A stretch of DNA of 64,000 bases, from positions 1,434,954 to 1,498,953 of the forward strand of contig CM120644.1 of assembly GCA_051362555.1 (NCBI GenBank). Reading direction: 5' to 3'. The stretch is from Lingula anatina (lineage: Eukaryota; Animalia; Brachiopoda). A program made the position numbers and the translations under genes. The notes beneath the pieces were generated by a model that was given only the letters and a program-made list of their open reading frames with translations, made no database searches and was not told where the DNA came from. Below, piece by piece: positions 6,941 to 64,000 of this stretch. Each line of letters starts with the position of its first letter. Position 1 is the first letter of the stretch.

Positions 6941-6948
6941 TACACAAC

Positions 6949-6986
<38 letters not shown>

Positions 6987-7150: not shown

Positions 7151-7158
7151 TTTTTATA
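7151..7158 (-). promoter_or_regulatory. TATA box of B1
   Basis: TATAAAAA about 30 nt upstream of a conserved ttttgacagact motif that is shared with the A genes at the same spacing. Confidence 0.7.
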
Positions 7159-7901: not shown

Positions 7902-7948
<47 letters not shown>

Positions 7949-8234
7949 ACTTAGATAAGACACCATCGGCAAGAAATATAATTTTTCAAGAGATGGGTAA
8001 ACTTTCTGAAATCCTCATATCTGTCTTAAAATACAAAGAGACCTCCACAATTCCCCTTTATGTCACTGCTGCATACCATAGTTGTCCCTCTACGAATTCT
8101 AAAGAAATTTGAGAAGGGAAGATAATGTGCCGAAACTCCGCGTTACATCATTGTTACAAGAAAAGGAATTGGAATTGGATGGAAAAGATTGGTACAAATG
8201 TAGTTGAAGCGGACGCCTCCGAAATCTCTCTCTT

Positions 8235-8305
<71 letters not shown>

Positions 8306-8979: not shown

Positions 8980-9035
<56 letters not shown>

Positions 9036-9708: not shown

Positions 9709-9742
<34 letters not shown>

Positions 9743-10263
9743 TTTCACACAGGGACGTAAAAACGCTCATATTGTCAGGAAAGGAATGAATTTTTAAAAT
9801 GCAGTGTATTATGCAATCCTCATTTCAAGCATATAAGATAAAAATAAAACCAAACAAACAAAAGGGCTATTTTCTTCTTAACCGTATACTTAAGAAAGCT
9901 CGATACATGCAAACTTTAATTCATTCATGATAGTTTATTCCCATATGTGTAAAAGATTGGGCTAGTATGCGATTTAGCATTCATCTCTACTAGTTTATTA
10001 AAGCATCGCCTATGTGGAAATGGAACATAGCCGCATTTATTTCATAATGAACTCTCGCAAAACACATAAAAACACACACTGAGAGAGTGTATGTGTGTGT
10101 GTGCGTGCTGGTCTGCTATGTGTGTGTGATTGAGAGGGAGGGATTAGAGAGAGAGGATTAACTTACATGCATTAGCTGATTCAATGTGTCCTTTGCTTTA
10201 CTTTGGCTTAGGCGTTATTTAACGATACACCCCTCCATCAAGATAGCTCCAGTGCTCTCACGT

Positions 10264-10270
10264 TATAAAA
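10264..10270 (+). promoter_or_regulatory. TATA box of A2
   Basis: TATAAAA at the same spacing to ttttgacagact as in the B genes. Confidence 0.65.
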
Positions 10271-10365
10271 TAGCTGCCTTGGTTAAGTTTTGACAGACTA
10301 CGTCGTCCGTCAAGATCCGAGTCCTTCTCCTAAAGTCCGCAGACTACATCTCTTTTCAGGCCAAG

Positions 10366-10438
10366 ATGATGAAGTTGGTTCTATTCGCTGCTCTCCTAAC
10401 CGTGGCCGCCGCCATGTAAAGGGAAAGTGTTGGTCAAA

Positions 10439-10480
<42 letters not shown>

Positions 10481-12932
10481 GTGAAGGATCCATACATGTT
10501 GTGGATTCTAGCTGCAACAGACAGTTCATCTTATGGTGCATTTAGAGTTAGTAAACAATCTGGAAGACCATGCATTTTTATTTTATTGTTCTGGGAATTA
10601 TCTTTGTCTGGGTCGAAGGTTCGATTTTTCTCATGATTTTTTAAATACTATGGAACTTGGATAACATATGACTTGGCGTAGATAATGCTTTCAAAAAGCA
10701 TTTTGCCGCTTTTGACTTTACAGGTATTGTACTTAGTTTGTAAACGGGTTTAGTAGGGGAGCCAAGGCTAAAAAAATGGCGAAAAAATTTTTATGATATA
10801 AAATTTTCGAATATATGGTCGGATAGCCTGATATCTGAGGTTTATGACTCTGCTTATTGGACAAATGGGCTCAATTGCGAAAGAGCCCAAAAATCCAAGA
10901 TGGCCGCCATCCCTTATGAATATGCAATAAACGCATAAATTGTGAAAAATGCTTGATATTTTCAATTTGTTTCAGGGTAGATGTTTTTTATTGTCCATAC
11001 ATTGTGGAAATATGTACTATCTGATGATCTGTAGCAGGAATTGATCAATTGGATTCAAAATGGCGCTCTATTCAAGATGGCGGCCAATATTTCAACATTT
11101 TTTGCAATTAAATCATCTTTTCATTGATCTAGAATTTATTTCAAACATGATATGAGCAAACATTTATCAAATAAAGATTCCCTCTGCTATTACCTGCATT
11201 TGTACCATCTATGTATAGTATAGAGGCTTTGTGATTGCAAAAAAATCCTATATGGCCGCCACACACGCCTTACCATTATGAGTAAAGGGTACCATCTGTC
11301 TTTTATAGAAAAGTTCAAATATCTACTTTAATGAAGCGAATGCTATTTCTGTTTTACAACTTTTGGGTAAAGAGGAATAGTTTCAATATTTTAAAGGCAA
11401 ATTCAAAAAGCTACCTCAATCCAAGATGGCTACCTTATCCAAGATGGCGGTCAAATTTTCACAAGTTTTAACAATGAAGTCATGTTTTCTGTAATCTAAA
11501 ATGACTTTCAATCAATTTACTATCTGAATACAGAATTTAAGTTTGATGATTAGAGAAAATTCAATATGGCTGCCACACACCCCTTACCAACATGAGACAA
11601 AGGCAAAACATGTATCATATCAAAAGTTGGTATATCTGATTTAATAAAGTACATTATACTTTCATTTTATAATATTTGGGTAAAGTACACTTGTTTTAAT
11701 TTTATAAAGGTTAATTACAGACTGCCTATTAATCCAATATGGCCACTCTTTCCAAGTTGGTAGCCAAAATTTTACCAATATTGCAATTTAATCCTTTTTT
11801 CTTTAAGTCAGAATTTCTTTCAATCTTTTAGAAGCAAAATTCCATAAAATATAGATACTCTACCCTAATAACTGCATTTTTACTATGTATATACAAAATG
11901 AAGGCTTAATGCTTATAGAAACGCACAATATGGCAACCATAAATCCCTTATACCATTACCCTCATTTGGATTTTTCTCTTCATCAAAAAGCCTCCATTGT
12001 GCATGCAGACAACAGAAATGTGTGAAATATTATAGAAAAGCTATACATGTATGTGATGACAGTTTGCTTATATCATGGTTATAAGAAATTCTAGATTTAA
12101 GAAAACATGACTTAATTGCAAAAATTAGTGAAATATTGTCCTCCAGCTTGGATGAAGCGGCCATTTTGAATCCAGTTGACAAATTATTGCTACAGATCAC
12201 CAGGAGGTATATAATTCCACAATATATACACAATAAAAGTATTCTACACTTCAGCAAAGAAATAATATTAATCACTTTTTATAACTGATGCTAGTTCTGT
12301 GCATTCACCATGGATGGCGGCCATCTTGGATTTTGGGGCACTTTCGCAATTGAGCTCATTTTTCTAATAAGCAGTTGCATAAACCCCAGGTATTAGGCTC
12401 TTCAATGATATGTTTGGAATTTTTATGTCATTAAATTTCTTTTACTACCCTATTTTGAAGACTTTTGGAGTTTGGTTCACCTACTACTTGTTCTCCACTC
12501 TGCTCTCTTCTGCTTATCTTCCCAAAAATATACGTGCCCAGTCGTAATGACCCTGAGGCTTATACAACAAAATCAAAATATTAGAACTGAGACAAAACCT
12601 GGGACAAATCCTTTTGATTCTTTTTTATATTGAAAACGTAAGGGTCCTGTTTTTATAAGACCTCTTTTTGCAAGATCAAAAGCAGCAGAAATTATTTGAA
12701 AATTAGGAATTGAAAAGTATTTTTGTATGAAAATTAAAAACCGTCTGTTTTATTTTCATTAAGGACCTACATGTATGGCTATCAACCAGACAGATTTGGA
12801 CATGGTTATAAACCAGACGACTATGGCACCAACAGCGAATGTCGCAGCTACGGCTACAACAGCTATGCAGGGGTGGGGTATGACTACAGCAGAAGGATAC
12901 ACTGGATACGTACCAAGGCCTTATAACCCAAC
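10366..12932 (+). pseudogene. Gly/Tyr-rich peptide pseudogene A2 (exons 10366-10439, 12764-12932)
   Basis: Paralog of A1 with TAT>TAA at codon 18 (10417-10419), a 5-nt deletion in exon 2 (agaagg-atacac versus agaaggaacggatacac), a transposon in intron 1 and no recognisable third exon. Confidence 0.85.
10751..12486. mobile_element. Non-autonomous TIR DNA transposon, Academ-like, in intron 1 of A2
   Basis: Ends tagtaggggagccaa / ttggttcacctacta; long imperfect inverted arms; repeated caagatggcg/cc motifs; empty site in A3 intron at ~22068 (gggttgttctcc); flanks gtt/ctt. Superfamily inferred from TAG ends and a 3-bp TSD. Confidence 0.8.
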
Positions 12933-15649: not shown

Positions 15650-17493
15650 ATGCGTGTTTATAAAGAGTATCAGGCATGCTCTTGGCACTTTCTTTGTATG
15701 ACACTGATGATTATGTTATAGTAAACAATGTCAAAATACATAACTAGATAACCACTCAGAGAACTAACGCAGACCTACGCAAATGAAACGGCATAAAAGT
15801 TTATTATTTTTATAGTTATTTGGAGGAAACTTCGAGTGTTTTATTGTGATTGGTAGGTTTTCAATACTACTTGTAAAGTTTACTTTCTTAAGAGAATCTT
15901 GTAAGAAAGTATATATAGACAATTGCAAAGGCATACACTGTGTCGTCCTTGTCGTAGGTCATAATGATCCGTGATATTGGTGCCATTATTAATTAAGCGT
16001 CAGTTTGAATAATGCTTTGTCTTCTAAGAAATACATTTAGTCGTGGTGTCTTCTGGTAATTAAATAATTAATTCATACATTATCTCTTAACGTCCTTGTA
16101 CTATCGTTAAAATATAACTTTCTTTTAACTTTTACAAGCACTCAGAATAAAATCAGTTAAGGTGATTTTTTAATAAAAACACATTCGAGTGTCTCTGTAT
16201 TTCACCAGGCCATGGCAAAACTTAGAAGCTTGATATTTCAGTTAAGAAAAATAAGCCTATTCTGTTTTACATATGTAAATATACAAAGCCTTCAGTGGGT
16301 CTCTTTGATGCCAAAACAATTATTTATAGAGTCCTTATTTCAAAAACTCTGGCATTTACAATGTGTACTTCAAAGAGGGAGGTTCTGTTTCTGATGAGGA
16401 ACGTTGCCACGAGAAAAGGGCCCACGCTGACATGGCATGTGTTGGCATATTTTAAATAAATAGTATACAACAGTTCTGTTGACGAAAGTGGTTGCCTAAA
16501 GTGGTTGTCAAACCTTATAAAACCCCTGTTTTTTTGTCATTGGCATCAACATGTCTTTAAAACACGGCTGAACCATGTTGCAGATACATGTCTAATCGCG
16601 AGATATGCAAAAGAAACAACATACACGATGATGACACATTTCTGTGGATTTCGATGATGAGCTTATAAATATGATCCCTGTATATGTGACCTTTTAAATA
16701 AAGATTCTCTTTAAAAAAAAACGCTTATAATTCCCATGGACATTTACAATTTATATTGGTTAAAAAAGATTAAAAACAAAATGACATCTTCATCACATAT
16801 TTTATTGCATAAGCGTTGAAAAAGTTCATACATGTAATACAGAACATGTTTCCAAATTGCACCGATCTATTTATGGGCAAAAGCAGTAAAGATATTTAGA
16901 ATGATATGAGCAAGGATCTGTTTGGTATGGGTCACGTGGTTGATGTCGTCATATCCGGCTGTGCACACTGCAGAATAAAGGTTATCAGCATCAGTTTCTG
17001 TAATATAAAAAAAATGATTGATAATGTCATTTAGACACGGTACGGGTCACGGTTGCTATTAAAAACGGACCAATGCATGACTTAATGAATAGACAATTGT
17101 CTAAAGTCTCTTCCTTCAGATCAATACAGTTCAATGCTTTTAACCCTTTGTTGTACTTATTGGCGGAGACTATCAAGACTGAAAAAGGAGGCTGTGTCGA
17201 CACCTGTCAACTTGGAGCTTTTACAAGATTGGTGGAACACATTTGGACCTTGACTCGAGCACAATTCAGATAAATGATACAGAATAGGTCGGTTCGGTTT
17301 TAACAATTGAACGACCAAGTTATGTCATATTTACAGATTGTTAATTAAAACTCGTTTATCACTCTTTTTTATTTTCTGACTAGTTTTAACTAGCCATTAG
17401 GAAACATGCAGTTAGCTGAAGTTTACACGTATTAAGCTGAATTATACAATCGCGAATAAACTGTAAAATGTGAATGAAAACGAAATCTTACCA

Positions 17494-18061
17494 CTAATAT
17501 CGCCATGGGGTATATGGTCCCTTCTTTCCTCCGTATTGAGGCTTTCCGTATCCAGCACCTTTGTATCCATAGCCTCCATATCCGTACCCTTGGTCATAAT
17601 TCATGTAGCTGCTGTAGCCATTTCCATATCCGCCGGGTTGATATCCATAGTGAGTCCTTTTACAAAATAAAAAGCCAAATAACTTTTCAATTTCATTGGG
17701 ATAAAATTATCAATATGAAAGAAGAAAACGTCGCCTTTTAAACAGTCTTCAGTGGAACTCCGCTTATTAGACATGCAGTAAAGGCTGAGCGTATCATTTT
17801 CTCTATAAAATGATCATTTCTTCGCTTGTTTTGTCTCGATTCTCGAGCGCTGAACAAAATGAAACCACAACAGTAACTTGGTTCTAAACAAAGGTTAGCT
17901 AGGGAATTTCTACAGCTACATATTAAAAGAAAACAGACTGTCCGAATCAACCCCTGTTTAAATTCTAATTGCATTAATTTGTTAGATGAATTGAATGTTA
18001 ATAAGATTAAATCACGAAACAAACAATGATACCGTAGTAAACCTCTTTCTCTCACTCTCTA

Positions 18062-18106
<45 letters not shown>

Positions 18107-18163
18107 TACACACACACGCATACACACACACATACACACACATACACACACACACATACACAA

Positions 18164-18207
<44 letters not shown>

Positions 18208-18270
18208 ATAGTACGACCAATTGGCGGCTGTCACGGCCACGAGAGCAGCGAGTAGAATCAGCTTCATCAT
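17494..18270 (-). CDS. Secreted Gly/Tyr-rich peptide, copy B2 (coding exons 18270-18206 and 17656-17494; non-coding exon 16997 to ~16790; 75 aa)
   Basis: [75 protein letters not shown]. Same exon structure as B1; AATAAA at 16806-16801. Confidence 0.9.
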
Positions 18271-18364
18271 CTTGGCGGAAAAAGAACTGTCGTCTGCTAA
18301 CTGTTGAAGTGTGACTTGGAGCTTGGTTGAAGTCGACGTCTGTCAAAACTGGACCAAGTCAATC

Positions 18365-18372
18365 TTTTTATA
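18365..18372 (-). promoter_or_regulatory. TATA box of B2
   Basis: TATAAAAA at the position equivalent to B1. Confidence 0.7.
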
Positions 18373-19805
18373 CCGACCTGAAACACAGAACGGTTTGGTA
18401 TTTTTTATATTTGCAAGCCAGTATTTTGCCTTTAGCCATTTGTGACAAATGTCTGGATGTTAATTAGATATACCTGTAAGACACATACGGAATAATCATG
18501 TTCGCAACGCATAATCAAACTGCGAAATTTCATTTTCCCTATTTTTAAGCAGTCAGTGCTTATTACAATGGAAAAAATCAAGAGAGAAATGAAGACTAAG
18601 GTAGAAAAATGCACAAACTGCTCTTAGCAGTTATGCTTTACTCCTTTTTCGTTATTGTAAAATACGGCAGTCAAAGTTTTAATTTAAAAGTAATATTTTG
18701 TCGGTCTTTAAACTATGAGTTGATAAAGCGTTTTGGTTTAAATTAAAGTCATGATGTTTTAAACTCGGAACCATGCAACAAACTCGCGTATCCATGACAT
18801 TCATCTAGCAAATGATAAACTGCAATTTCTGCTGACAGATGAATAATACCAATACTGGAAATCGAAAAAAAACACCAATTTGCCTCCTCGTTACAACGAT
18901 GGCAAGACTAGCTTTATTATTAATTCTGTTGAGAAGTTACAACAGGTTAGGACACTATATTTTACGACCTTTTCATTAGATAATAATTCCCTGCCTCGGG
19001 TAGATTTAAAAGAACTTTTATGTTACAGACTTACATAACAGGATTGGTGCCAATAAGATCTGTGTGTCTGCTTTAAGGCATACTGGTACCTGAACTTGAT
19101 GGATAAGTGTGGTGACTTCAATCAGTCTCTCTCTCTCTCTTTAACACACACACACACACACACACACACTTAGATAAGACCGTCGGCAAGAAATATAATT
19201 TTTCAAGAGATGGGTAAACTTTCTAAAATATTCATACATGTCTTAACATGCAAAGTGACCCAAAATTCCCACTTATGTCACCGCTGCATACCTTAGTTGT
19301 CCCTCTACTAATTCTAATAAGAAATTTGAGAAGATAATGTGCCCAAACGCCGTCTTACTTCACTGTTACAAGAAAAGGAGACTTCCAGTAACATACTGTC
19401 AAAGAAGAAGCAGTTGAGTGGTAATTTTCCATAGGTCTCAGAAAAGAGACTACATGTATTTTACATTATCAAACACATCTACATGTTTTTTTTTCATAAG
19501 CAACTAATAGTAACGAACCAGTGTATTCATTTCAAGCAGCTAATGAACTTGATGAATGCTGCTTAAGTCTTCTCATCACAAAGGTGGCAAGTCATTCAGG
19601 TCAGAGCACAACACATTTTACGAGTGTTTCATTAGATAAAAAGTGCTTGGGGTAAACTGAAAAGACATTGTTTTTTGCATCACTACAATTTATGGCATCA
19701 ATTATACGTAATTGTAAGCTTCAAGGCAGTACATGTACGTGAATTGGATGGAAAAGATTGGTACAAATGTAGTTGAAGCGGACGCCTCCGAAATCTCTCT
19801 CTTTG

Positions 19806-19874
<69 letters not shown>

Positions 19875-19969
19875 AACACACACGCACACACGCACACACA
19901 CACAGGGACGTAAAAACGTTCATATTGTCAGGAATGTTTTTTTAATGCAGTGTATTATGCAATCCTCAC

Positions 19970-20003
<34 letters not shown>

Positions 20004-20331
20004 GGGGGAGGGAGGGGAGAGAAAGAGGATTGACTTGCATGTGTTATAATAATTCCATCATCACAAAAAATTAGGTGGAAAAACGTTTCTATCTTCAGTT
20101 GTATAAAATGTATTAACAGTTATTCTTAATTAGCAGAGTCTTTAATGCATTCTATGCTTTAATTTGACTGAGGCGTTATTTAACGACTCACCCCTCCTTC
20201 AAGATAGGTCCAGCGCTCCGGCTGACTAGACGTGCATTGGGCGTCCGCCAGTAGTCATTCTTTTATGAATTGAATCAGAATGATCACCTGAACTTGATGG
20301 GTAAGTGTGGTTACTCCAATCAGTCTCTCTT

Positions 20332-20368
<37 letters not shown>

Positions 20369-21073
20369 TACACACATGCACACACTTAGATAAAACATGC
20401 CGTCCAAATCACTGACCAAAATATAATTTTTCAACAGATGGGTGTGATTTCTGAAATCCTCATACATGGTTTAAAATGCAAAGAGACCTCCAAAATTCCC
20501 ACTTATGTCACCGCTGCATACCTTACAGTAGTTGCCCCTCTACATATTCTTTGATAAGAGAAGAAAATGTGCCCAAACTCCGCCTTACTTCATTGTTACA
20601 AGAAAAGGAACAATGAAGTAAGGAAACATACAGAAACATACTGTCAAGGAGAAGCAGTTAAGTGGTAATTTTCCATAGGTCTCAGAAAAGAGACTATTTC
20701 ATTTTAGCAAACATATTTCCCTTTTTTTCCTTTTGTCAAAAGCAACCGGTAGTCACGAACAAATGCTAATGAACTTGATGAATGATGCCAAATAAACAAT
20801 ACCCAATGAAAATACCGTAAAAATATCTTGTCTGTCTTCTTATCACAAAGGTGGCAAGTCATTCAGGTCAGAGCACAACCATTTTTACGAGTGTTTCATT
20901 AGATAAAAAGTGCTTGGGGTAAACTAAAAAGACTTTGTTTATTGCAGCACTACAATTTATGACAGACGATAGGCTTAAAGGGGTTGGCATTAATTATGTA
21001 ATTGTGAGCTTCATGGCGGTACGTGAATTGGATGGAAACGGCACAAATGCAGTTGAAGCGGACGCCTCCGAAA

Positions 21074-21107
<34 letters not shown>

Positions 21108-21444
21108 ACACAGGGACGTAAAAAAGCTCATATTGTCAGGAAGGGAATGCATTTTTAAAATGCAGTGTATTATGCAATCCTCATTTCAAGCATATAAGAT
21201 AAAAGTAAAACCAAACAAATAAAAGGGCCATTTTCTTCGTAACTGCATACTTAAAAAGCTCGATACATGGAAACTTTAATTCATTCATGATAGTTTATTC
21301 CCATATGTGTAAAAGATTGGGCTAGTATGCGATTTAACATTCATCTCTACTAGTTTATTAAAGCATCGCCTATGTGGAAATGGAACATAGCCGCATTTAT
21401 TTGATGATGAACTCTCGCAAAACACACAAAAACACACTGAAAGA

Positions 21445-21482
<38 letters not shown>

Positions 21483-21716
21483 AAAAGTGTGTGATTGAGA
21501 GGGAGGTTGGAGAGAGAGAGGATTAACTTACATGCATTAGCTGATTCAATGCGTCCTTTGCTTTACTTTGGCTTAGGCGTTAATTAACGATACACCCCTC
21601 CTTCAAGATAGCTCCAGTGCTCCCACGTTATAAAATAGTTTTAGCAGACTTCGTCGTCAGTCAAGATTCAAGTCCTTCTCCTAAAGTCCGCAGACGACAT
21701 CTCTTTTCAGGCCAAG

Positions 21717-22521
21717 ATGATGAAGTTGATTCTACTCGCTGCTCTCCTGACCGTGGCCGTCGCCATGTAATGGGAAAGTCTTGGTCAAAGGTGAGAGAGA
21801 GAGAGAGAGAGAGAGAGAGGGGGACTGCTGAAAGGTCCATACATGTTGTGATTTCTAGCTGCAAAAGACAGTTCATCTTATGGTGCATTTAGAGCCAGAG
21901 AACAATTGTTCTGGGAATTATCTTTGTCTGGGTCGACGGTTTGATTTTTCTCATGATTTTTCAAATACTATGGAAATTGGATAACATATGACTTAGCATA
22001 GATAATGCTTTCAAAAAGTATTTTGCCGCTTTTGACTTAACTGGTATTGTACATAGTTGTAAACGGGTTGTTCTCCACTCTGCTCTCTTCTGCTCATCTT
22101 CCCAAAAATAAATATGTCCAGTCGTAAAGGCCCTGAGGCTTATACAACAAAATCAAGATACTGTCTCAAGAACTGAGTCAAAACCTGGGACAAATCCTTT
22201 TGATTCTTTTTTTATATTGAAAACGTTAGGGTCCTGTTTTTATGAGGGCTCTTTAAGCAATATCAAAAGCAGCAGAAATAATTTGAAAATTAGGAATTGA
22301 AAAGTATTTTTGTATGAAAATGAAAAGCCGTCTTTTTTATTTTGATTAAGGATCTACTATGGCTATTAACCAGATAGATATAGATATGGTTATAATCAAG
22401 ACGACTATGGCACCAACAGCGGATATCACAGCTACGGCTACAACAGCTATGCAGGGGTGAGGTATGACTACAGCAGAAGGAACAGATACACTGGATACGT
22501 ACCAAGGTCTTATTACCCAAC
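21717..22521 (+). pseudogene. Gly/Tyr-rich peptide pseudogene A3 (exons 21717-21790, 22351-22521)
   Basis: Same codon-18 TAA (21768-21770) as A2, a second stop CAA>TAA at 22367-22369, a weakened donor (gtcagt), a deletion between TATA (21629-21635) and the start site, and no third exon. Confidence 0.85.
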
Positions 22522-38519: not shown

Positions 38520-39250
38520 CTTCAGGAACAAGCAGGTTTCAGAGGCCAGTACACCACTACTGATCATATGCACACTGTCAACCAGCTCAAAGAGAAATGT
38601 CTCGAGTATGATATTCCACTATGCGTAGCATTCGTTGATTATAGAAAAAGCCTTCGACTCAGTAGAAACCCAGTATATACTGGCATCCCTGCAAGATCTA
38701 GGGATCGAAGATGGATATGTAGACGTCCTCAGAGACATATACACCGATAGCTCTGTAACAGTCAAACTACACAAGACCACCAATAAGATCAGGATCAAGA
38801 AAGGTGTACGCCAAGGAGATACAATCTCTCCTAAACTGTTCACAGCAGCATTGGAACGTATATTCAGGGATCTAGACTGGCAGGACAAGGGCATAAACAT
38901 AGACGGTACCAGGCTCAATCACCTTAGATTTGCAGACGACATCATAATAGTAGCAGATGATGCAAAAGACCTCGAAGAAATGCTACAGGCGTTAGCAGAT
39001 GAAAGCGCAAAAAGTGGGCTAAAGATTAACACCAGCAAGACAAAGGTGATGTTTGGACCACTAACCACCCCTTGCACAGTGAAGGTCAATACCAAAGAGA
39101 TAGAAGCAGTAGAAGAGTATATATACCTTGGGCAACGGTTCAGCCTTAGTGATCGAACACTGGAGAAAGAAATCCAACGAAGGATAAAAGCAGGATGGGC
39201 AGCATGTGGGAAGCACAATGACATCTTCAAGAGTAACCTTCCTAGCTGCA
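38520..39250 (+). mobile_element. RTE-clade LINE reverse transcriptase fragment (frameshifted, truncated)
   Basis: EQAGFR...CVAFVDY / EKAFDSVE...KGVRQGDTISPKLF...LRFADDI...YIYLGQ; frameshift near 38643. Confidence 0.9.
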
Positions 39251-39556
39251 TAGGAACATTCTTTTATCATTTGGCATGTCGAGTTTATCATTTTGAGATA
39301 CCGACATGCTTTGCGCGAGATGACGCAATACCAGGGATAGTCTCAAAACAAACGGTGGAAAAAGGAACTAACGCATCCAGGACTGGTTCCCGGTTCACCG
39401 TCAACAAAAAGTTGTAAGTGCCTGGCCACAAGCCTTATAACTACCCCTTCGTCTCTTGAATTTGGTCTTCAGGTTTCCCAAATCAGCTTCCTCCAGGATT
39501 TGATCCCTATCTTCCCCCTTGTGGCCTGGCACTAACAACTTTTTGTTCTGGAGATC

Positions 39557-41529: not shown

Positions 41530-43452
41530 ATACAAGGCGAGCCTCCTTGAAAAACTTCAAAATATGGAAGGGAAAGATCCAAAGTCTTTTTGGCAAACTG
41601 TACAAGATCTAAACACTAGTAAAAATAAATCAAATTCTACAGAGCATGTAGATCCGCTAACTTTTTTTGAACATTTTTAAAAACTTAGCAACAGTGCTGA
41701 CTTAGGCAAATACGACGACAACTTTAAACAAATGCTTGAGTCTCAGTTGCCAGTTTAAGAGGCTGAAAATGCAAATTTTGACAGTTTAGATCATGAAATA
41801 ACACAGGCTGAAATACTTAAGCAACTCAAGACTCTAGGGACAGGCAAATCTTCGGGTGAAGATAGAATCACCAATGAAATGCTGAAAGCGAGTACGGCAA
41901 CCATAGTACAAGTATTGCATAAACTATTCAATGCAGTATTTTTGAGTAATCAATCCCCAAAAATATGGAATAAAAGTTTCATTGTTCCCCTCCATAAATC
42001 TGGTGATCCCAGTAATGTAGACAATTACCGCGGTATCTCTATATCAAGTTGTGTAGGAAAACTGTATAATTCTATTCTGCTTTCAAGACTGAAAAAGATA
42101 TGCTCACAACAGAGTGTCCCTTAGCCCAACCAAACTGGTTTCATGGAAGGACATATCACCTCCAATAACTTATTCCTGAAATCTATAGTCGCAAAGTTAA
42201 CAAGATCTAGGAAACGTTTATATGCCTGCTTTGTAGATATGAGTAAAGCTTTTGATAATGTGTGGAGGAAAGGTCTCCTCTATAAATGATTAAAACTCAA
42301 CGTAGGGGGAGTGTTCTATGCAAACATTCGATCAATTCCAGTGGCTTAACTAATTGTTTTCCAACGATGAAAGGTGTCAAGCAGGGAGACACTCTCAGTC
42401 CCTTTTTATTTAATATATTTGTGGGTGACATGTTAAAGCTCATTGATGATGTCAAAAGCGATTCTCCCATAATAAACAACAAACCCGTCACAGGTCTCTT
42501 CTACGCGGACGATCTTGTGCTGCTGTCAACTAATGTCTCTGGTTTACAGTACAGTCTTAATCGTACTGAAGCTTACTGTTTTACATGGAGACTCTCTATA
42601 AATCTTTCAAAAACAAAAATTAGTATCTTCAATAGCAAGGGAAAGGTACTGAACAACCAGGTGCGGTGCAAAGAAAAATGTTTTCTCTATAACAGTCAGT
42701 TAACAATCGTTCCCAGCTACATGTATCTTGGTATTCTCTTTACAAGATCAGTTAATTTCGCAGCTGCTCAATTGAACTTATACGAAAGGGCACAGAAAGC
42801 TCTCTTTAGTCTGAAAAGCTATATGCCACTCTGTAGTAGTATATCGTCCTTGTTTAAAGAAAAACTATGTGACACTCTGATCATACCGGTGGCTACATAT
42901 GCTGTTCAAGAATCACCGACAAATCTCCGGTAGAAAAAATCCATTTACGCTTTTGTAAAGAACTCCTACCCTGTAGGTGTACATTCTAAAAGTCCAAACC
43001 AAGCTGTCAAAGGAGAACTCGGTAGGCTACCAGCATCCTTTAAAATCCAAACACAACTTATAAAATTTTGGCAAAAAAATATTAATTTCGGAAGATAATA
43101 GTTCGTTGAAACAGGCCTACCTGGATGAAATAGAAAATTACAAATTTTAAACACATCCAATCTTACAGAGATAAAGCAGGAAAACAAGTTATGGTGCAAA
43201 GGTGTGAGACAAATACTTTTTGAGAATGGCTTTGGTGATGTGTGGCTAGGCCAAAGATATGATAAAAACTTTATCCAGCGGTTTAGGGAAAGAATCAGGG
43301 ACAGAATAACACAAGAATGGAAGAGAGACATAATCAACACCAAGTCCAAATTACAAGTTTATTGTCAATACAAGAACAAATGTGTGAAGGAAAGATACTT
43401 AGATACAATTAAAGATAGAGATAAATGCACCACTTAAACCAGATTCCGCATA
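41530..43452 (+). mobile_element. Decayed CR1/L2-group LINE ORF2 (reverse transcriptase)
   Basis: KSSGEDRITNEMLK, NYRGISI, CFVDMSKAFDNVWR, KGVKQGDTLSPFLFNIFV, LFYADDLVL, YMYLGI; multiple stops and frameshifts. Confidence 0.9.
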
Positions 43453-52477: not shown

Positions 52478-52910
52478 AACAGAACAGTAAAGGAACCAAG
52501 AATCAGCCCAGGGAGTCAGTAGACACATCAGCAACTTTGTGTTCTAGTAAAAAACGGTAAAGGAACCAAGATTCATCCAAGTGCAGGGAGACAGTCAACA
52601 TACCAATACTTTTGTGTGAAAGTGAGAACAATAAAGGAACGAGCACTCGGCCAGAAGTCAGTCCACATACTGGAACACTTCTGTGCTACTAGAGAACAGT
52701 AAAATAACCAACACTCATCCAGGTGCGGAAAGGTAGTCGACATACCTTTGTGTGAAGTGCAGCGGGACATTTGATATATTACCTATTTCCTTTACTTGCT
52801 AACAGAGAACAGTAAAGAAATCCAATCTCAGCCAACGGCAAGGAGACAGTCGACATAGTGGTATATTTGTGTGCTAGTAGAAAACAGTCGACATGCTGGT
52901 ACCTTGTGCT
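52478..52910. repeat. Degenerate ~70-bp tandem repeat upstream of the ROCO exon
   Basis: Recurring agaacagtaaaggaacc...agacagtcgacata...ttgtgtgctagt. Confidence 0.7.
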
Positions 52911-53155: not shown

Positions 53156-56100
53156 ATGGGTTCAATTTTAAGCCGATTATGCCACCAAAGGCAATATGAA
53201 CACCAGGACCAATATGGAGACCAGGAAAAACTAGATATCCTCAATAAATTGGATGAAGATCCCAGTTACCAAGGACCAGGCACAGACCAGGTAGAAACAT
53301 GGACAGAACTTAACCTTAGAGGACTAGCATGCAGACTACCAAATAGCTTACTACGTTGTACGAAACTTACGACACTTAATGTTTCCAAAAACCATCTAAT
53401 GGGGGAAGAACAAATTATCACAATCTTTAATCTGGAGACACTTGAAGAGCTAAACATGTCAAATTGCAGAATTTCTTCAATTCCTCTGGATATAACCGAG
53501 CCCAAACATTTGAGAAAGCTTAACTTATCAGGAAACCATCTGACAGAGATACCACTACCAGTATGTAGCCTCCTGCAGTTGGGAGAACTCAATCTAAAGA
53601 ACAACAAAATAACTACCGTCAGCCCACATTTAAAAAGACTGTGCAACTTGAAAAAGCTAGACATCTCCAGAAATCCTTTAGAAGAATTCCCATTTACAAT
53701 ATTAGAGATGAAAACATTGGAAAATCTTAATTTGGCGAGTGCCAATGTTACTACAATCCCACAACAGATAAACCAGTTTACAGACATTAGTGAAATAGAC
53801 CTGTCTAATAACCAGTTAGAGGAATTTCCACTGTCACTGTTGGAGCTGGAAACACTCAAGGCGGTAAAGCTCTCTAACGCCAATATAACCACAGTGCCAC
53901 CTAAGATAACCAAACTTAAGAATCTGAGGGAATTGAACATTTCTTGGAACCGGTTGGGAGAATTTCCAACGTCGATATGTAAGCTGCTGACCCTGGAGAC
54001 CCTTGACCTCTCCAATAGCAACATCACTACCGTGCACCCTGGGATAAAACAACTTGAGAATTTAAAGGAATTGAACCTATCTTTGAACCAGTTGAAAGTA
54101 TTTCCAATGTCAGTGTGTAGGCTGGTAGCACTGGAGACCCTTGACCTCTCAAGAGCTAACTTCACGTCAGTGCCACCTCTGATAGCACAACTAAAGAATC
54201 TGAAGGAATTGAACCTTTGCGGAAACCAGTTGAAAGAATTTCCAATGTCAATTTGTAAGCTGGTGACACTAGAGACCCTTGACCTCTTAAATAACAGCAT
54301 CACTTCAGTGCCAACTCAGATAGCACAACTTAAGAATCTGAAGAAATTGATCCTGGGTGGGAACCAGTTGAAAGAATTTCCAATGTCAGTGTGTAAGCTG
54401 GTAGAACTGGAGACCCTTAACCTCTGGAGCAACAGCATCACTACAGTTCCGCCTCAGATAACACAACTTAAGAATCTGAAGGAATTGATCCTGTGTGGGA
54501 ACCATTTGAAAGAATTTCCAATGCCATTGTGTAAGCTGGTGAAACTAGAGACCCTTAACCTCCGGAGCAACAGCTTCACTACAGTGCCTCCTCAGATAAC
54601 ACAACTTAAGAATCTGAAGAAGTTGCACCTGTCTGCGAATCAGTTTACAGAATTCCCAATGTCAGTGTGTCAGCTGCTGACACTGGAGACCTTTGACCTC
54701 TCTCAAAGTAACATCACTGCAGTGCCGCCTCAGATAACACAACTTAAGAATCTGAAGGAATTGGACCTGTCTGGGAACCAGTTCAAAGACTTACCAATGC
54801 CAATCTGTGAGCTGGTGACACTGGAGACCCTTAACTTCTCTCAAAGTAACATCACTACAGTGCCACCTCTGATAACACAACTAAAGAATCTGAAGGAATT
54901 GATCCTGTGTGGGAACCAGTTGAAAGAATTCCCAATCTCAGTGTGTGAGTTGGTGACACTGGAGACCATTGACCTAACTCAAAGTAATATCACTACAGTG
55001 CCACCTCAGATAACACAACTTAAGAATCTGAAGAAATTGTACCTGTCTAAGAACCAGTTTAAAGAATTTCCAATGTCAGTGTGTAACCTGGTGACATTGG
55101 AGACCCTTGACCTCTCTCAAAGTAACATCACTACAGTGCCACCTCTGATAACACAACTAAAGAATCTGAAGGAATTGAACCTTTCTTGGAACCAGTTGAA
55201 AGAATTTCCAATGTCAGTGTGTGAGCTGGTGACACTGGAGACCCTTAACCTGCGGAGAATCAGCATCACTACAGTGCTGCCTCAGATTACTCAACTTAAG
55301 AATCTGAAGGAATTGGACCTTTCTTGGAACCAGTTGAAAGAATTTCCAATGTCAGTGTGTAAGCTGGTGAGACTGGAGACCCTTAAACTCGGGAGCAACA
55401 GCATCACTACAGTTCCGCCTCAGATAACACAACTTAAGAATCTGAAGGAATTGATCCTGTGTGAGAACCATTTGAAAGAATTTCCAATGTCATTGTGTAA
55501 GCTGGTGAAACTAGAGACCCTTAACCTCCGGAGCAACAGTATCACTACAGTGCCGCATCAGATAACACAACTTAAGAATCTGAAGAAGTTGCACCTGTCT
55601 GCGAATCAGTTTACAGAATTCCCAGTGTCAGTGTGTGACCTGTTGACATTGGAGACCCTTGACGTCTCTCAAAATGAAATCACTACAGTGCCACCTCAGA
55701 CAAAACAACTTAAAAATCTGAAGGTATTGGACCTGTCTGGGAACCGGTTGAAAGAATTGCCATTGTCAGTGTGTGAGCTGGTGACACTGGTGACCCTTAA
55801 CCTCGGGAGCAACAGCATCACTTCAGTGCCGCCTCAGATAACACAACTTAAGAATCTGAAGAAACTGGACCTGTCTGGGAACCGGTTGAAAGAATTGCCA
55901 TTGTCAGTGTGTGAGCTGGTGACACTGGAGACCCTTAACCTCTGGAGAATCAGCATCACTACAGTGCCACCTCAGATAACACAACTTAAGAATCTGAAAA
56001 AATTAATCCTGCGTGGAAACCAGTTGAAAGAATTTCCAATGTCAATGTGTAAGCTGGTGACCCTGGAGACCCTTGACCTCTCTGAAAGTTACTTCAGAAC

Positions 56101-58080
56101 AGTGCCACCTCAGATAACACAACTAAACAATATGAAGGAATTGAACCTGACTGGGAACCAGTTGAAAGATTTTCCAATGTCAGTGTGTGAGCTGGTGACA
56201 CTGGAGACCCTTGAACTCTCTCAATGTAACATCACTACAGTGCCACCTCAGATAACACAACTAAAAAATCTGACGGAATTGAACCTGACTGGGAACTATT
56301 TGAAAGAATTTCCAATGTCCGTGTGTGAGCTGGTGACACTGGAGACCCTTGAACTCTCTCAGAGTAACATCACTACAGTGCCACATCAGATAACACAACT
56401 AAAGAATCTGAAGAAATTGGACCTTTCATGGAACCAGTTCAAAGAATTTCCAATGTCAGTGTGCGAGCTGGTGACACTGGAAACCCTTGACCTTTGGAGA
56501 ATCAGCATCACTACACTGCCACCTCAGATAACACAACTTAAGAATCTAAAGAAATTAATCCTGCGTGGAAACCAGTTGAAAGAATTTCCAATGCCAGTGT
56601 GTAAGCTGGTAGAACTGGAGACCCTTAACCTCCGGAGCAACAGCATCACTACAGTGCCGCCTCAGATAACACAACTTAAGAATCTGACGGAATTGATCCT
56701 GTCTGGGAACCATTTGAAAGAATTTCCAATGTCAGTGTGTAAGCTGGTAGAACTGGAGAAACTTAACCTCCAGAGCAACAGCATCACTACAGTGCCGCCT
56801 CAGATAACACAACTTAAGAATCTGAAGAAGTTGCACCTGTCTTCGAATCAGTTGACAGAATTTCCAATGTCAGTGTGTAAGCTGGAGACACTGGTGACCC
56901 TTGATCTCCAAAGCAACAGCATCACTACAATGCCACCTCAGATAACACAACTTAAGAATCTGAAGGAATTGATCCTGTATGGGAACCAGTTGAAAGAATT
57001 TCCAATGCCAGTGTGTAAGCTGGTAGAACTGGAGACCCTTAACCTCCGGAGCAACAGCATCACTACAGTGCCGCCTCAGATAACACAACTTAAGAATCTG
57101 ACGGAATTGATCCTGTCTGGGAACCATTTGAAAGAATTTCCAATGTCAGTGTGTAAGCTGGTAGAACTGGAAAAACTTAACCTCCAGAGCAACAGCATCA
57201 CTACAGTGCCGCCTCAGATAACACAACTTAAGAATCTGAAGAAGTTGCACCTGTCTTCGAATCAGTTGACAGAATTTCCAATGTCAGTGTGTAAGCTGGA
57301 GACACTGGTGACCCTTGATCTCCAAAGCAACAGCATCACTACAATGCCACCTCAGATAACACAACTTAAGAATCTGAAGGAATTGGACCTGTCTGACAAC
57401 CAGTTGAAAGAATTCCCACTTCCATTGTGTGAGCTGGTGAACATGGAGATCCTCAAACTTGAGTACAATAGAATCAGCCAAGTCCCACCAGGGATTAAAC
57501 AACTACAAATGCTCACATATTGTTATTTGGGTCACAATAAATTGGACCAGCTTCCCCCTGATGTACGTCTCCTGTCTAAACTCAAGAAATTTGGTTTGGA
57601 AAAAAACGAACTAAAACAGCCACCACAGGAAGTAGCAGACAGAGGGGCGGAGGCTATTCAGCGGTATTTTGATGATTTAGTCAAAACCAAGGCAACATCA
57701 TCGTTTAGACTACAAGTACAAGTTATTGGTGAGACATGTGCAGGGAAGACGAGTTTGGTGAAAACCTTGACATCTGGTAGGCCTTTCTTGACGACAAAGG
57801 CAGACAGAACCCACGTCATGGAGCAGATCACGTGGTCACCAAAGGAGGATGTTTTTCTCAGCATCAATGATTTTGGGGGGCATGAAGTTTATAAAGTTGC
57901 ACATAACTTCTTCGTCACCAAAGAAGCAATCACACTGATAGTGTTCAACCTTCAGGCAGGGTCTTGTAAATACAAAGAAGCAGTCGGAAGCTGGATAGCT
58001 AACGTTTACAGCAGGGCACCAGATTCAGCTATACTTCTTGTGGGTACACATGCTGATTGCCTAAACATAGAAGAAGTAGC
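53156..58080 (+). CDS. MFHAS1-like ROCO protein, 5' part: ~60 LRRs plus N-terminal part of the ROC GTPase
   Basis: 1675-aa ORF of 23-aa LRRs, then PPQEVADRGAEAIQRYF cap, P-loop GETCAGKTS (57728-57754), G3 DFGG and G4 GTHAD. The last ~34 codons of the listed ORF are transposon read-through. Confidence 0.92.
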
Positions 58081-60342
58081 TGTAGAGCCGCATTTTGCAA
58101 CCGACCGCATTTTGCAACCGGTTGCAAAATGCGTTCAGTTGCAAAATGCGGTCCTACTAAGTAGAGCCGCATTTTGCAACTGAACGCATTTTGCAACTGC
58201 AACGCATTTTGCAACCAAAGAAAATCGTGAAAACGCATTTTGCAACTGCAACGCATTTTGCAACCAGGATTTTTTTCTTAGTCCCTGAAACAGCTTGAAG
58301 TACGAGACAGGTAGGCTACGGGTAGAATTGGAGTGGGGACGGGTTTGCTTCGACTAAGCACTGTATGCTAAAACTGGCCAGGCTGCCCCTGGGGTGGACG
58401 ATAATATAAAACTTATTTCACATTGCAATTTCCTAAACCATTAGAGTTAGGAGGTTGAAACGTCAGGGAGTAAAAAAGATATTGTTAGGCATGCACATAG
58501 GGGTGTGGCCGTCCCAAGGGGTGGTTGATTGTAATTTTACATCTTTAGAATTAGGAAATAAAAGCGTTGGGGATTAATACCATCGTAAGTAATGTGCGTA
58601 GGCACTCCAGATTTTTTGTGACTTGGGGTGTAGTTGTCCCTGGGGGTGGTTGAGATCGTTAGAGATGTGCTTGGGCACAACGGAATTTTTTGGTCACTTG
58701 GAGAGTGCCCGTCCCTTGGGATAGTTACTTGACTGTAATATTTTCACCGTAATTTCTTTCATCTCCTTCTCGTCCGTTCGAGTTAGGAGCACGAGTCTTT
58801 GGTGCATGGGTACAGGGGAATTTTAGAGTGACTTTGGGTGTGACTGTCCCTCAGGGGATGGGGTGATTGGTGGTATGTCAGACAATTAAGCTGATTCCAC
58901 TGATTGCACTTAAGTGAGATCCCCTGCAGAGTTGGACCGACGCAGCTAGTAGGATGTGTGAATCTGAAAGCTGTCTTCGAGTTAAGAAGGAAGGGGAATG
59001 CAAAGAACGCAGCAGACGGCACTTAATAACAGACCTTCAGCGGTATGCTTGAATATAGGTCAAGTTAATTAAAAACACATGCAAGACCCCATACTTTCAG
59101 GCATAGTCTCTGTAGAGCAACACACATGCTAATTACTATTTATGATTAATTAACATATTTGTTTTGTATTAAGACACAACGGCTAGTTGAACGCCAGGAT
59201 TCCTGAGTGTGTAGGGCCTTATGGTTGGCATGGGTCAAAAGGACAGCTTTAACTGGATTCCTTGACCTATATTCATGCCTACGACTGTAAGTCCGTTTAG
59301 TGCTATGTGCGCCGCTGCTGTTCTCTAAATTCCTCAAAGACCCATGTACATTCATTATCAATCCCCAACATTTCATGTTCCTAACTCTAAGGGTAGATAG
59401 TAGAAGTAACGGTGCAAAAAAATAGAATCAACCACCCCCAGGGACGGCCACACCCATCAATACCCCAGAGGGATCCATATCCCTAAAGACATGTTTTCAA
59501 TTCCCATAGCCTTCCGTTCCTAACTTATATGGTCTAAAGGTAGATGGCAGAAATTACAACGTCTAATTATTTTCAACCACCCCGAGGACCACACCCTAAG
59601 TCAAAAAAATTACATGCCATTCAACATCCCAAATTATACTGTAGCTACGTTTCATGCTTTAACTCAAATGGCCGATACATGGGCAGATAGCAGATAATAC
59701 GTTGTAAAATTAGAATCAACCACCCCAGGGACAACCACACCCATGTCACAATAAATTTCCGAAGTGCCCGTGCACATTTCTTACGATAGTGTATTAATCC
59801 CCAACGTTTTTATTTCCTAATTCTGAAGATATAAGGGTAGATATGAGAAAAATACGAAGTAAAAAAGTTCAATCAACCACCCCTAGGGACGGCCACACCC
59901 CCAATTTAAAAAAAAAACAAAAACAAAAACAAAAAATCCGAAATTCCATGCACATGCCTAACAAAATGTTTATTAACGTTTAGAGTTCCTAACTCTAATA
60001 GTCTACGAAATTACAATGTGCAATAAGTTTTATATTTTCGTCCACCCCAGGGGCAGCCTGGCCAGTTTCAGCATACATAGTCGAAGCAAACCCGTCCTCA
60101 CTCCAATTCTACCTGTCTCGTACTTCAAGCTGTTTCAGGGACTTAGAAAAAAATCCTGGTTGCAAAATGCGTTGCGGTTGCAAAATGCGTTTTCACGATT
60201 TTCTTTGGTTGCAAAATGCATTGCAGTTGCAAAATGCGTTCAGTTGCAAAATGCGGCTCTACTTACTAGGACCGCTTTTTGCAACTGAACGCATTTTGCA
60301 ACCGGTTGCAAAATGCGGTCGGTTGCAAAATGCGGCTCTACA
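58081..60342. mobile_element. 2262-bp non-autonomous DNA transposon with TGT..ACA ends and long TIRs, inserted in the ROC domain
   Basis: tgtagagccgcattttgcaacc / ggttgcaaaatgcggctctaca; ~350-bp near-perfect inverted arms; subterminal accaccc..gggacggccacaccc repeats; flanks tagc/taga; no transposase ORF. Confidence 0.92.
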
Positions 60343-60346
60343 TAGA

Positions 60347-61698
60347 CACAATTACGCGGGAGCTTTTATCTGCCGTAAGTTCCCACTTAAGTGATATGGC
60401 ATCCGATTTTAGAACAAGACTTGAGAAATTAGAAAAGAGAAACAAAAGCAAAGAATCAGGTCGAGAGGCATACAAAGACAAGGTGGCTCGAATTAAGAGT
60501 CTAATTCAGACACCACCACGTGTTGCCAAACATGTATTTGTCATCAGTTCGAAAACTACCAGTGGAATAGCTGAGCTTGAGGAAACACTTATAAGAAAAG
60601 CGAGAGAAAAGAATTACATATTGCCAGAGTCTTGGCTGCAGAAGGTGGAGCACATAGAGACAGCAAAGAACATTGAACAAGATCCTTACCTAACACTGGA
60701 TTCTCTTACCAACATGGCAGAGTTGATACCATCGCAAATGCAGGAAAGTGATGATGTTCAAAGAATTGAAGACGTGCTGAGTTTCTTGTATGCCACAGGT
60801 GCTGTTCTTTGGTTCAGAGATAAGCCATTGTTAAAGACCTTCATATTCCACAGACAAGATGTTTTCATTGATATCTTGAAGGTAGTTCTTCGTCATGATA
60901 TTGATTCCATACTTAAATATGATACCGACCCTTTCAACAAAGAGTTCACCAAGGCGAAATTTGACTATGCCAAGAAGGATGTGCTGCAAAGAGGTATCAT
61001 CAGTAGAACCATGTTGGAATGTTTGTGGCGGAGATTCAACTTGGGAAAACAGGGTTATGACGCCATGTTAGAGTTGCTTGAAAATTTCGAGGTTTGTTAC
61101 GTTGTAAAAGAAGCTGATGAAGATAGGTACCATTTCCCATGGCTTTTAAAAGACGCTCAACCTGAAGACATGTATTCCAGTTGGCCCATTGTTCCATCCA
61201 GAGATGAGTCACATATTTCCACTGAAGTTCATTTTCCAGTCACTTGTCCCACTGGACTGTATGAAATGGCGGCGGTGCATCTCCATGGCTACTTGGGGCA
61301 GTTCAAGGCATCAAGACGAGACTGGAAAGATGGTTTCTATGCAAAGCTTGACAACCAGTGTCATCTTTGTTTGGAAAGAAAGGTTTCTGATGCATCACCC
61401 AATGGAGTTATTCGACTTTCCATACGTGGAGATGATCCCATCCAAGTGAAGAAACACAGCCTGACGATATTTGAAGATCTTCTATCCCTGACAGAAAAAG
61501 AATGTCCCGGATCTCCTTGGGATGAATTCCTGGTGTGTCCACACTGTGTGCACGAAGACAACAATCCACCGACGCTGTTTGACACCCCTCTATATCTCCT
61601 GAGTGTTCCCCTTGAGGCACCAGTTCCTTACCACCCGTGTCCAGAGGAAGAACCAGAGTTTATGGCTTCTGCAGACTTCTACTATCCGGTGACTGCCG
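60347..61698 (+). CDS. ROCO protein, continuation: ROC C-terminus (VISSKT), COR domain and CPHC motif
   Basis: In frame with the 5' part after removing the element plus 4 bp (LNIEEV[A/D]TITRELL); LPESW, LSFLYATGAVLWF and YHFPWLL COR-type motifs; phase-1 donor g|gtaaat at 61698/61699. Confidence 0.85.
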
Positions 61699-61969: not shown

Positions 61970-62237
61970 GAGAAATGACAGCTTTGCACTGCGTGTCCCT
62001 AGAAAAACATGCTCCCCTGATTTTGAAGAACATCCGCAGGTTTGGCTGCCTTCTTAAGATACTCAGTCGACTCCACAGAGGTGGGATTTTTACAGAGGAA
62101 GAAATCACAGCAATCCAGGAACCGGATCAAGGGAACAGACTTCAGAGTTACCTGAAGGGAAAAAACGATTTTGCTTTCTACCAGTTCTGTGGTGCTCTCC
62201 ATGATAACGGGCATGCGCAGACAGCTCGGCTTCTGAG
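61970..62237 (+). CDS. ROCO exon encoding CARD-like death-fold domain 1
   Basis: Phase-1 acceptor ttttgaag|ga; LEKHAPLILKNI...ILSRLHRGGIFTEEEITAI...LQSYLKGKNDFAFYQFCGALHDNGHAQTARLL; GC donor ag|gcaagt. Confidence 0.75.
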
Positions 62238-62395
62238 GCAAGTCTGCAAAATGAACTTCATCAAGCTTTTAAAATTGAATTACAGTTCACAAAATGTTAC
62301 TGGTGTTAACTGACACCCGCTGCATTTATATCATTAACATTTGGCTTATAGTTGTACACGGGGTGTTGATATTTTCTTATTTAATTTTGAATTAG

Positions 62396-63017: not shown

Positions 63018-63091
63018 GTGAGCTGCTGTCTTCGCCAAAGTCTCACGGACATGACATCACAGTCAACTACGGCGCCAACATAACACTACAG
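63018..63091 (+). other. Isolated exon-like segment (GELLSSPKSHGHDITVNYGANITLQ)
   Basis: Acceptor cctgtttcatag|, donor cag|gtagac, GC-richer open frame in AT-rich flanks; parent gene unknown. Confidence 0.4.
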
Positions 63092-64000
63092 GTAGACTGA
63101 AATTCACTGTATATGATATGTTTATATCTGTAGACATAACAGAATTGATATACAGGTAAACTGAAGTTCACTGTATATAATATGTTTATATCTGTAGACA
63201 TAACAGAATGGACAGGTAAACTGAAGTTCACTGTATATAATATGTATATATCTGTAGACATAACAGAATTGATATACAGGTAAACTGAAGTTCACTGTAT
63301 ATAATATGTTTATATCTGTAGACATAACAGAATTGACAGGTAAACTGAAGTTCACTGTATATAATATGTATATATCTGTAGACATAACAGAATTGATATA
63401 CAGGTAAACTGAAGTTCACTGTATATAATATGTATATATCTGTAGACATAACAGAATTGATGCTACAGGTAGACTGAAATTTACTGTATATAATATGTAT
63501 ACATGATATCTGTAGACATAAGACAAATATTGCAGCTACAGGTAAACTGAAGTTCACTGTATATAATATGTATATATCTGTAGACATAACAGAATTGATA
63601 CTACAGGTAGACTGCAATTTACTGTATATAATATGTATATATCTGTAGACATAACAGAATTGATACTACAGGTAAACTGAAGTTCACTGTATATAATATG
63701 TATACATGATATCTGTAGACATAAGACAAATATTGCAGCTACAGGTAAACTGAAGTTCACTGTATATAATATGTATATATCTGTAGACATAACAGAATTG
63801 ATACTACAGGTAAACTGAAGTTTACTGTATATAATATGTATATATCTGTAGACATAACAGAATTGATACTACAGGTAGACTGACATTCACTGTATATAAT
63901 ATGTATATATCTGTAGACATAACAGAATTGATACTACAGGTAAACTGAAGTTCACTGTATATAATATGTATATATCTGTAGACATAACAGAATTGATACT
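63085..64000. repeat. ~65-bp tandem repeat running off the window end
   Basis: Unit ctacaggtaaactgaagttcactgtatataatatgtatatatctgtagacataacagaattgata with indel variants. Confidence 0.95.

Follow-up and report, generated by a model that had tools for sequence, protein, structure and literature searches.

What kind of product is encoded by a leucine-rich repeat (LRR) array whose repeats share one conserved framework, and differ chiefly at a handful of surface residues? The question is raised by a gene of the brachiopod Lingula anatina, in a 64,000-nucleotide stretch of DNA (hereafter the window; GCA_051362555.1, contig CM120644.1, forward-strand positions 1,434,954 to 1,498,953), for which a first-pass annotation made from the letters alone had proposed an intracellular ROCO sensor that diversifies by recombination among modular repeats. 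We consider it probable, at a little over 60%, that this is a Lingula-type LRR-ROC-COR-CARD-CARD gene with a recombining array of 138-nt units, in which diversity at the binding face is kept; that its intact allele is likely to serve as an NLR-like immune sensor; and that the window copy has been broken by a transposon. This reading builds on the observed domain architecture and unit structure, the concentration of variation, a recombination signal, a three-unit duplication, and an insertion with its empty site.

The array is carried by a plus-strand frame which runs free of stop codons from an ATG at 53156 to about 58183, and its 4.3 kb contain neither a stop nor a frameshift. Sixty-one of the 62 LRRs are 23 residues long, and the remaining one 25; the earlier figure of 'about 60' agrees with this count over the whole domain, 52 of the 62 lying between the limits then given (53850..57450). 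The 138-bp two-repeat unit described at first pass was recovered by Tandem Repeats Finder (period 138 nt, 25.8 copies, 84% matches; 53891-57453), with repeat A reading LKELxLxxNQLKEFPMSVCxLVT and repeat B LETLxLxxxxITTVPPQITQLKN. To call the scaffolds nearly invariant was an overstatement, as they are conserved only, ITTVPPQITQLKNLK occurring exactly six times and NQLKEFPMSVC.LVTLETL once. Nucleotide identity among 23 core units averages 83.7% (range 72-100%), which accords with the repeats about 80% or more alike, with few hypervariable positions, that define high-internal-conservation sensors. The protein begins MGSILS, which we take, by the consensus MGxxxS, to be a predicted N-myristoylation motif; a start of this form is common to the paralogs P0001 and P0002. 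Degenerate short repeats lie just upstream of the gene (52480-52900), and are absent from the Tandem Repeats Finder output.

Variation within the unit is concentrated at LRR positions 5, 7, and 8, rather than spread evenly. Across 22 units, mean entropy reaches 1.97 bits at these positions, whereas other non-core positions average 0.76 bits and core positions 0.38 (p = 5e-5 for the excess by permutation), and nucleotide diversity is 0.42 in their codons versus 0.12 elsewhere. All 16 variable motifs quoted in the first-pass annotation were found, and fall at the same three positions, together with position 9 in B repeats. Structural mapping by AlphaFold, which that annotation had suggested as a check, was run with AlphaFold2 and produced a regular solenoid for the 24 repeats modelled (54200-55855), with a predicted local distance difference test score (pLDDT) of 93 and a predicted template modelling score of 0.86. 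Because the modelled strand comprises positions 3-5 of each repeat, position 5 lies on the predicted strand, and positions 7-8 in the turn that follows. The strand side of an LRR domain is its concave, and usually its ligand-binding, face, and it follows from this established structure that the variable residues of the array would line the predicted concave binding face. Positions 5, 7, and 8 also match sites reported to be under selection in brown-algal ROCO proteins (PMC3341825, PMC11378527).

The accelerated evolution of these codons is directly observed, their tree length being 11.5 relative to about 3 for the others, or roughly fourfold. Pairwise ratios of nonsynonymous to synonymous change (dN/dS) are 0.70 overall, 1.54 at positions 5, 7, and 8, and 0.46 over the 36 codons that remain when positions 3, 5, 7, 8, and 10 are set aside. 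In a codon model with a shared synonymous rate, omega at the variable positions is 4.2 on the whole-unit tree, 3.3 on the half-unit and 3.0 on the quarter-unit trees (p 2e-10 to 4e-6), and about 0.74 at the remaining sites. We favor this model because synonymous diversity in the variable patch is not significantly raised (0.147 vs 0.115, p = 0.23). Positive selection at the three positions is likely on this basis, although model-dependent and unproven.

Recombination among units, as supposed at first pass, was borne out by two approaches. A pairwise homoplasy index (PHI)-type test was significant for each of four window sizes (p<=0.0006; 22 distinct units, 52 informative sites), and incompatibility between site pairs was 30% at distances below 30 nt as against 57% at 60 nt or more, a difference reached by none of 150 clonal simulations that used the best tree and kept the site rates of the data. 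Mantel correlations between unit segments were significant in two of six pairs, both adjacent. For all 24 window units, the nearest neighbor is in the same gene. By one common count there are 58 LRR motifs here, about 15 in the closest paralogs P0001 and P0002, and 9 to 29 in other family members. Taken with the recent three-unit duplication (a block for which assembly error may be the source), the recombination tests indicate the shuffling of repeats inside the gene that also characterizes high-internal-conservation sensors. Unequal crossover and gene conversion would fit this pattern, on account of the recombination signal, the three-unit duplicate, the within-gene location of the closest units, and the differences in repeat number among paralogs. 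Simple stepwise growth of the array was rejected, as unit identity does not drop with distance along it.

Downstream of the array, the Pfam Roc match scores 49.5 bits against a cut-off of 27, with P-loop, DFGG, and THAD motifs present, and COR-A scores 43.4 bits against 35.3; COR is contiguous with Roc once an insertion of 2,266 nt is skipped. Splice signals and comparison with paralog P0002, which itself matches Pfam CARD at E 2e-12, predict two further exons. The structural model of the first of these aligns with the Apaf-1 CARD over 83 residues (Z 14.2, root-mean-square deviation 1.5), and the intron between the two (62238-62395) is predicted to be of the GC-AG type. From the Pfam Roc and COR matches, the open frame across the empty site described below, and the CARD matches of exons 2 and 3, the intact product is predicted to be LRR62-ROC-COR-CARD-CARD. 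As the Pfam scan gave Roc and COR, and neither NACHT nor NB-ARC, the gene falls outside the NLRs, although its mode of action may resemble theirs. Roc, COR-A, and COR-B, together with nearest proteins that are Lingula anatina MFHAS1-like, uphold the earlier identification of an animal ROCO gene; the downstream COR and CARD-like exons and the inserted element were absent from that account, and the C-terminal CARD-like domains strengthen its reading of the gene as a sensor.

The insertion, of 2.26 kb, lies inside the ROC domain and separates Roc from COR in the window allele. Its longest stop-free stretch is 113 codons, and its contig depth is in the thousands, relative to about 30-290 in the flanks. 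Given the inverted arms, the lack of a coding frame, and this depth, the element is a high-copy, non-autonomous DNA transposon. It is flanked by TAG plus one extra C, or by an imperfect 4-mer; internal repeats of 17-18 nt are present, and around 58870-58970 its interior matches another repeat, one that is transcribed. TGT...ACA ends are also those of Ginger elements, which are characterized by a DDE transposase and to which this non-coding insertion may belong. Ginger-type transposons are described as duplicating 4-5 bp of target (PMC10045372).

In each of the DNA runs X1 and X3, a contig joins 58076 directly to 60343 and so skips the 2,266 nt; its depth is comparable with that of single-copy neighbors, and it shows 1 to 4 differences. 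Copies with an intact junction therefore exist, whether as allele or paralog. In this empty form, 60343..61698 shares an exon with the LRRs, and addition of the two downstream exons yields an open frame of 2,261 residues. The window allele, by comparison, encodes 1,675 residues with a stop inside the element, and lacks the end of ROC, COR, and the CARDs; relative to the intact 2,261-residue protein, it is probably a null. Splicing the insertion out at the nearest GT and AG, judged by eye, does not restore the frame, and no joint for a spliced-out insertion was found in the portion of RNA runs X11 and X14 that was searched (12.4 million records of X11 and 9.5 million of X14, some 6% of either run). 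Ten X14 reads match part of ROC and then diverge (57863); these likely derive from an expressed paralog. Coordinates are collected in Table 1.

Table 1. Features of the Lingula anatina LRR-ROCO locus, in window coordinates.
Feature	Position	Strand	Basis or remark
N-terminal segment, starts MGSILS	53156..53365	+	Sequence; upstream exon possible
62 LRRs, intronless, single open frame	53366..57649	+	Frame walk; Pfam LRR families
Homogenised core, 138-nt / 46-aa A+B unit, 25.8 copies, varies at LRR positions 5, 7, 8	53891..57453	+	
Three-unit (414-nt) tandem duplication, recent	56570..57385	+	56570-56971 and 56984-57385 differ at 1 of 402 nt
ROC GTPase, 5' part: P-loop GETCAGKTS, DFGGH, THAD	57700..58076 (start approximate)	+	Pfam Roc E 6e-13
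Terminal-inverted-repeat element, non-coding	58080..60342	.	Arms 234 nt, 98%; ends TGT...ACA; TAG both sides
End of ROC, COR-A, COR-B	60343..61698	+	Pfam COR-A E 4e-11, COR-B E 3e-5; 76% identity with Lingula P0001
Predicted exon 2, CARD-like domain 1	61970..62237	+	Pfam CARD E 0.02; model pLDDT 91
Predicted exon 3, CARD-like domain 2 and stop codon	62396..62636	+	Pfam CARD E 9e-4; tblastn with P0002

The gene belongs to an expanded Lingula family of MFHAS1-like ROCO proteins, comprising at least 14 named Lingula clusters among public proteins, many with CARD. MFHAS1-like is here the automatic annotation of the relatives, and our trees were built without a named vertebrate sequence. A search with the COR region returned eight longer proteins, of which seven are from Lingula anatina (50-76% identity) and one from Owenia (23%). 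In a full-library search, which gave 338 representatives at E<=0.001 (150 among the matches listed), seven of the ten top representatives looked up were further Lingula proteins, several with CARD. In a quick, midpoint-rooted COR tree of 37 rows chosen from the matches, the window sequence groups with P0001 and P0002 (98 in the Shimodaira-Hasegawa-like approximate likelihood ratio test, SH-aLRT), and a 16-row group (SH-aLRT 97) contains 14 Lingula proteins, the window, and one other protein. Residues 1-1000 of the product drew 46 matches among shorter proteins, none exceeding 39% identity and none representing an allelic fragment. In Lingula P0006, a COR-CARD fragment precedes a full LRR-ROC-COR-CARD protein, probably two tandem genes merged in annotation.

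The array design extends beyond brachiopods. Among 156 ROCO relatives examined from the matches listed, window included, 85 have at least six LRR motifs and 21 have homogenised arrays (internal identity >=0.6), nearly all with a 46-residue period; within these matches the 21 are made up of the window, seven Lingula, nine amphioxus, and four other proteins, and amphioxus P0137 reaches 59 LRR motifs. Positions 5, 7, and 8 vary more than other exposed positions in 13 of the 15 homogenised arrays that could be measured, a further two of 17 having too few pairs for the contrast, which is missing from non-homogenised relatives with enough pairs (41 of 135; 0.86 vs 0.87). Placement of 17 homogenised proteins as one clade against 11 others was rejected in an approximately unbiased (AU) test (p-AU 1.6e-6), run after the first tree with labels fixed before it; the design was therefore repeatedly gained or repeatedly lost through decay, the order of events being unproven. 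C-terminal ends differ among the amphioxus proteins, with GT4-conflict domains in P0091, P0137, P0154, and P0175, a caspase in P0198, and OTU domains in P0128 and P0175. In P0073, the C-terminal end is a trypsin-like domain, and in P0110 it consists of CARDs.

Several results weigh against the interpretation of this gene as a diversifying sensor. When the six variable codons are allowed their own rate, omega falls to 1.66, indistinguishable from 1 (twice the log-likelihood difference, 1.9), and a tree-free count gives 0.83-1.44 (p = 0.08); codon tests can moreover be inflated by recombination. The dN/dS check put forward at first pass thus yields values above 1 with a shared synonymous rate (omega 3-4.2), and no significant excess with a separate rate or free of a tree. 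The Pfam CARD scores of the exons in the window itself fall short of the curated cut-off, and the portions of X11 and X14 searched contain no reads that match the COR or CARD exons at 90% likeness. The empty site could stem from a near-identical paralog, rather than from an allele. Lastly, the homogenised relatives P0189 and P0198 lack the contrast at positions 5, 7, and 8, and the non-homogenised control is weak, being near saturation.

Some of these results would also be expected of a decaying duplicate, that is, a dispensable and weakly expressed gene grown by neutral unequal crossover, in which the concave positions are unconstrained, and the scaffold is held by folding and conversion. The disabling transposon in the window allele, the missing COR and CARD reads, the failure of variable-site omega to exceed 1 significantly in two of the three types of test, and the high omega at remaining sites (about 0.74) all suit that account. 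Nevertheless, it is unlikely. Neither a stop nor a frameshift interrupts the 4.3 kb of array; other exposed positions should be equally free, yet their entropy is 0.76 rather than 1.97 bits; and the variable codons evolve about four times faster while synonymous diversity is not significantly raised. Furthermore, amphioxus arrays vary at the same positions, and the empty site is present in two DNA runs.

We think it improbable that the gene encodes a non-immune scaffold or signaling ROCO protein, akin to SHOC2 or vertebrate MFHAS1, each repeat contacting a different, fixed host partner. We know of no homogenised array or CARDs in MFHAS1. That protein resembles the present one in being a kinase-less LRR-ROC-COR protein with a link to TLR signaling; it is one of four human ROCO proteins (PMC11378527), and is described as a modulator of TLR2 signaling, not as a known receptor (PMC5520684). 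The best fold matches of the array are generic LRR solenoids, SHOC2 and an axonemal LRR protein among them, and matches of this kind carry no functional information. A scaffold with fixed partners should not tolerate repeat numbers that differ widely among close paralogs, nor a recent duplication of a three-unit block. The family has expanded within its lineage, and its members are linked to death-fold and caspase domains.

An allorecognition or guard receptor for polymorphic or modified host proteins, in the manner of fungal HET-E-type NLRs, is very improbable, given that lingulids are solitary and do not fuse, and that no partner gene was identified in the window. What speaks for it is the occurrence of the same homogenised design, with few hypervariable positions, in fungal allorecognition NLRs (PMC13449251). 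Rearrangement of repeat units in immune cells, as in the somatically diversified receptors of lampreys, is scarcely credible, although the units do recombine and could replace one another without loss of frame. Genomic DNA already contains the complete gene, the 64-kb window (which covers 1.4 kb downstream) has no LRR cassettes outside it, C-to-T changes do not dominate among departures from the unit consensus, and neither signal peptide nor membrane span is evident by eye.

If the intact gene is an NLR-like immune sensor, its operation might be pictured as follows. Unequal crossover and gene conversion in the germline would alter the number and order of repeats, while selection would keep the concave residues diverse, such that the solenoid might present many combinations of surface residues. 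Ligand binding on the solenoid could switch the ROC-COR GTPase, which in turn may expose or cluster the CARDs and so recruit a CARD adaptor or caspase. The sensor would be cytosolic, and possibly held at membranes through myristoylation of its N-terminal glycine. Family members may often be born and lost, and the transposon-bearing allele agrees with such turnover.

More broadly, because the design recurs in amphioxus with death-type effectors, our results suggest that a class of NLR-like sensors is to be found among the genes annotated as 'MFHAS1 homolog'. That these constitute an overlooked class of animal receptor, present in separate clades of brachiopods and amphioxus, with a ROCO GTPase switch, intronless arrays of up to 60 LRRs which germline reshuffling turns into many allelic binding surfaces, and effectors of CARD, caspase, glycosyltransferase, or protease type, is a tentative proposal which we hold somewhat less firmly than an even bet. 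It touches on how recognition repertoires are widened in invertebrates without lymphocytes. As a single exon, the array could be amplified whole by long PCR, making repeat number, order, and surface residues readable in individual animals or tissues.

The mechanism proposed is already known from brown algae and fungi, and we did not find the animal ROCO case described; a literature search, with most subscription journals outside its scope, returned no animal ROCO protein with a shuffled, homogenised array, and the available main text of a study of amphioxus domain architectures (PMC2575513) contains none of the whole words GTPase, Ras, or Miro. LRR-ROCO proteins of the brown algae Ectocarpus and Saccharina, candidate immune receptors, are reported to share the LRR-ROC-COR order, family expansion, a number of repeats that varies (up to 49 LRRs), and a few fast-evolving sites on the concave face (PMC3341825, PMC11378527). 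In those genes, each LRR is described as occupying its own exon, with exon shuffling and alternative splicing (PMC3341825, PMC11378527), whereas the 62 LRRs of the Lingula array form a single uninterrupted, intronless frame built on a two-repeat unit, with CARD-like domains further downstream.

Fungal NLRs with high internal conservation, such as HNWD of Podospora, are likewise reported to combine repeats 80-100% alike with few hypervariable positions, a presumed concerted evolution by unequal crossover, a cell-death effector, and an association with transposons (PMC13449251). They are described as having a STAND ATPase (NACHT/NB-ARC), an N-terminal effector, and a C-terminal WD40, TPR, or ANK sensor (PMC13449251), in contrast to the ROC GTPase switch, N-terminal LRR sensor, and C-terminal CARDs predicted here. 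Repeat-length polymorphism has been shown for the fungal genes (PMC13449251), whereas the Lingula array was examined in one assembled sequence; the same source extends high internal conservation to ATPase-bearing animal proteins. Bacterial AP-GTPase (Roc-COR) counter-invader proteins offer a further parallel, with fast-evolving N-terminal LRRs, Roc-COR, and a variable C-terminal effector, including the GT4 and caspase domains (PMC8195603) that the amphioxus relatives also carry. Such proteins were described in prokaryotes (PMC8195603); the Lingula gene is from an animal, with introns and CARD-like domains.

The comparison with lamprey variable lymphocyte receptors (VLRs), drawn in the first-pass annotation, stands for the binding face, and fails for assembly. 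VLRs are cell-surface or secreted proteins, somatically assembled from flanking cassettes, whereas the Lingula array is complete in the genome, with no donor LRR cassettes elsewhere in the 64-kb window. What is shared is the placement of variable residues on the concave LRR face (PMC3341825).

Elsewhere in the window, no matches to tRNA or Rfam families were found. A local duplication (4969-10750 and 16114-22069) comprises two blocks, 3.3 and 2.1 kb long and about 89% identical, alongside a 48-nt minisatellite at 4086, 15220, and 30420. Reverse-transcriptase fragments resembling those of long interspersed nuclear elements lie at 38629-39417 and 42286-42933 (Pfam RVT_1). A 65-nt tandem repeat of 14 copies occupies 63085-64000, starting about 450 nt past the stop codon of the gene.

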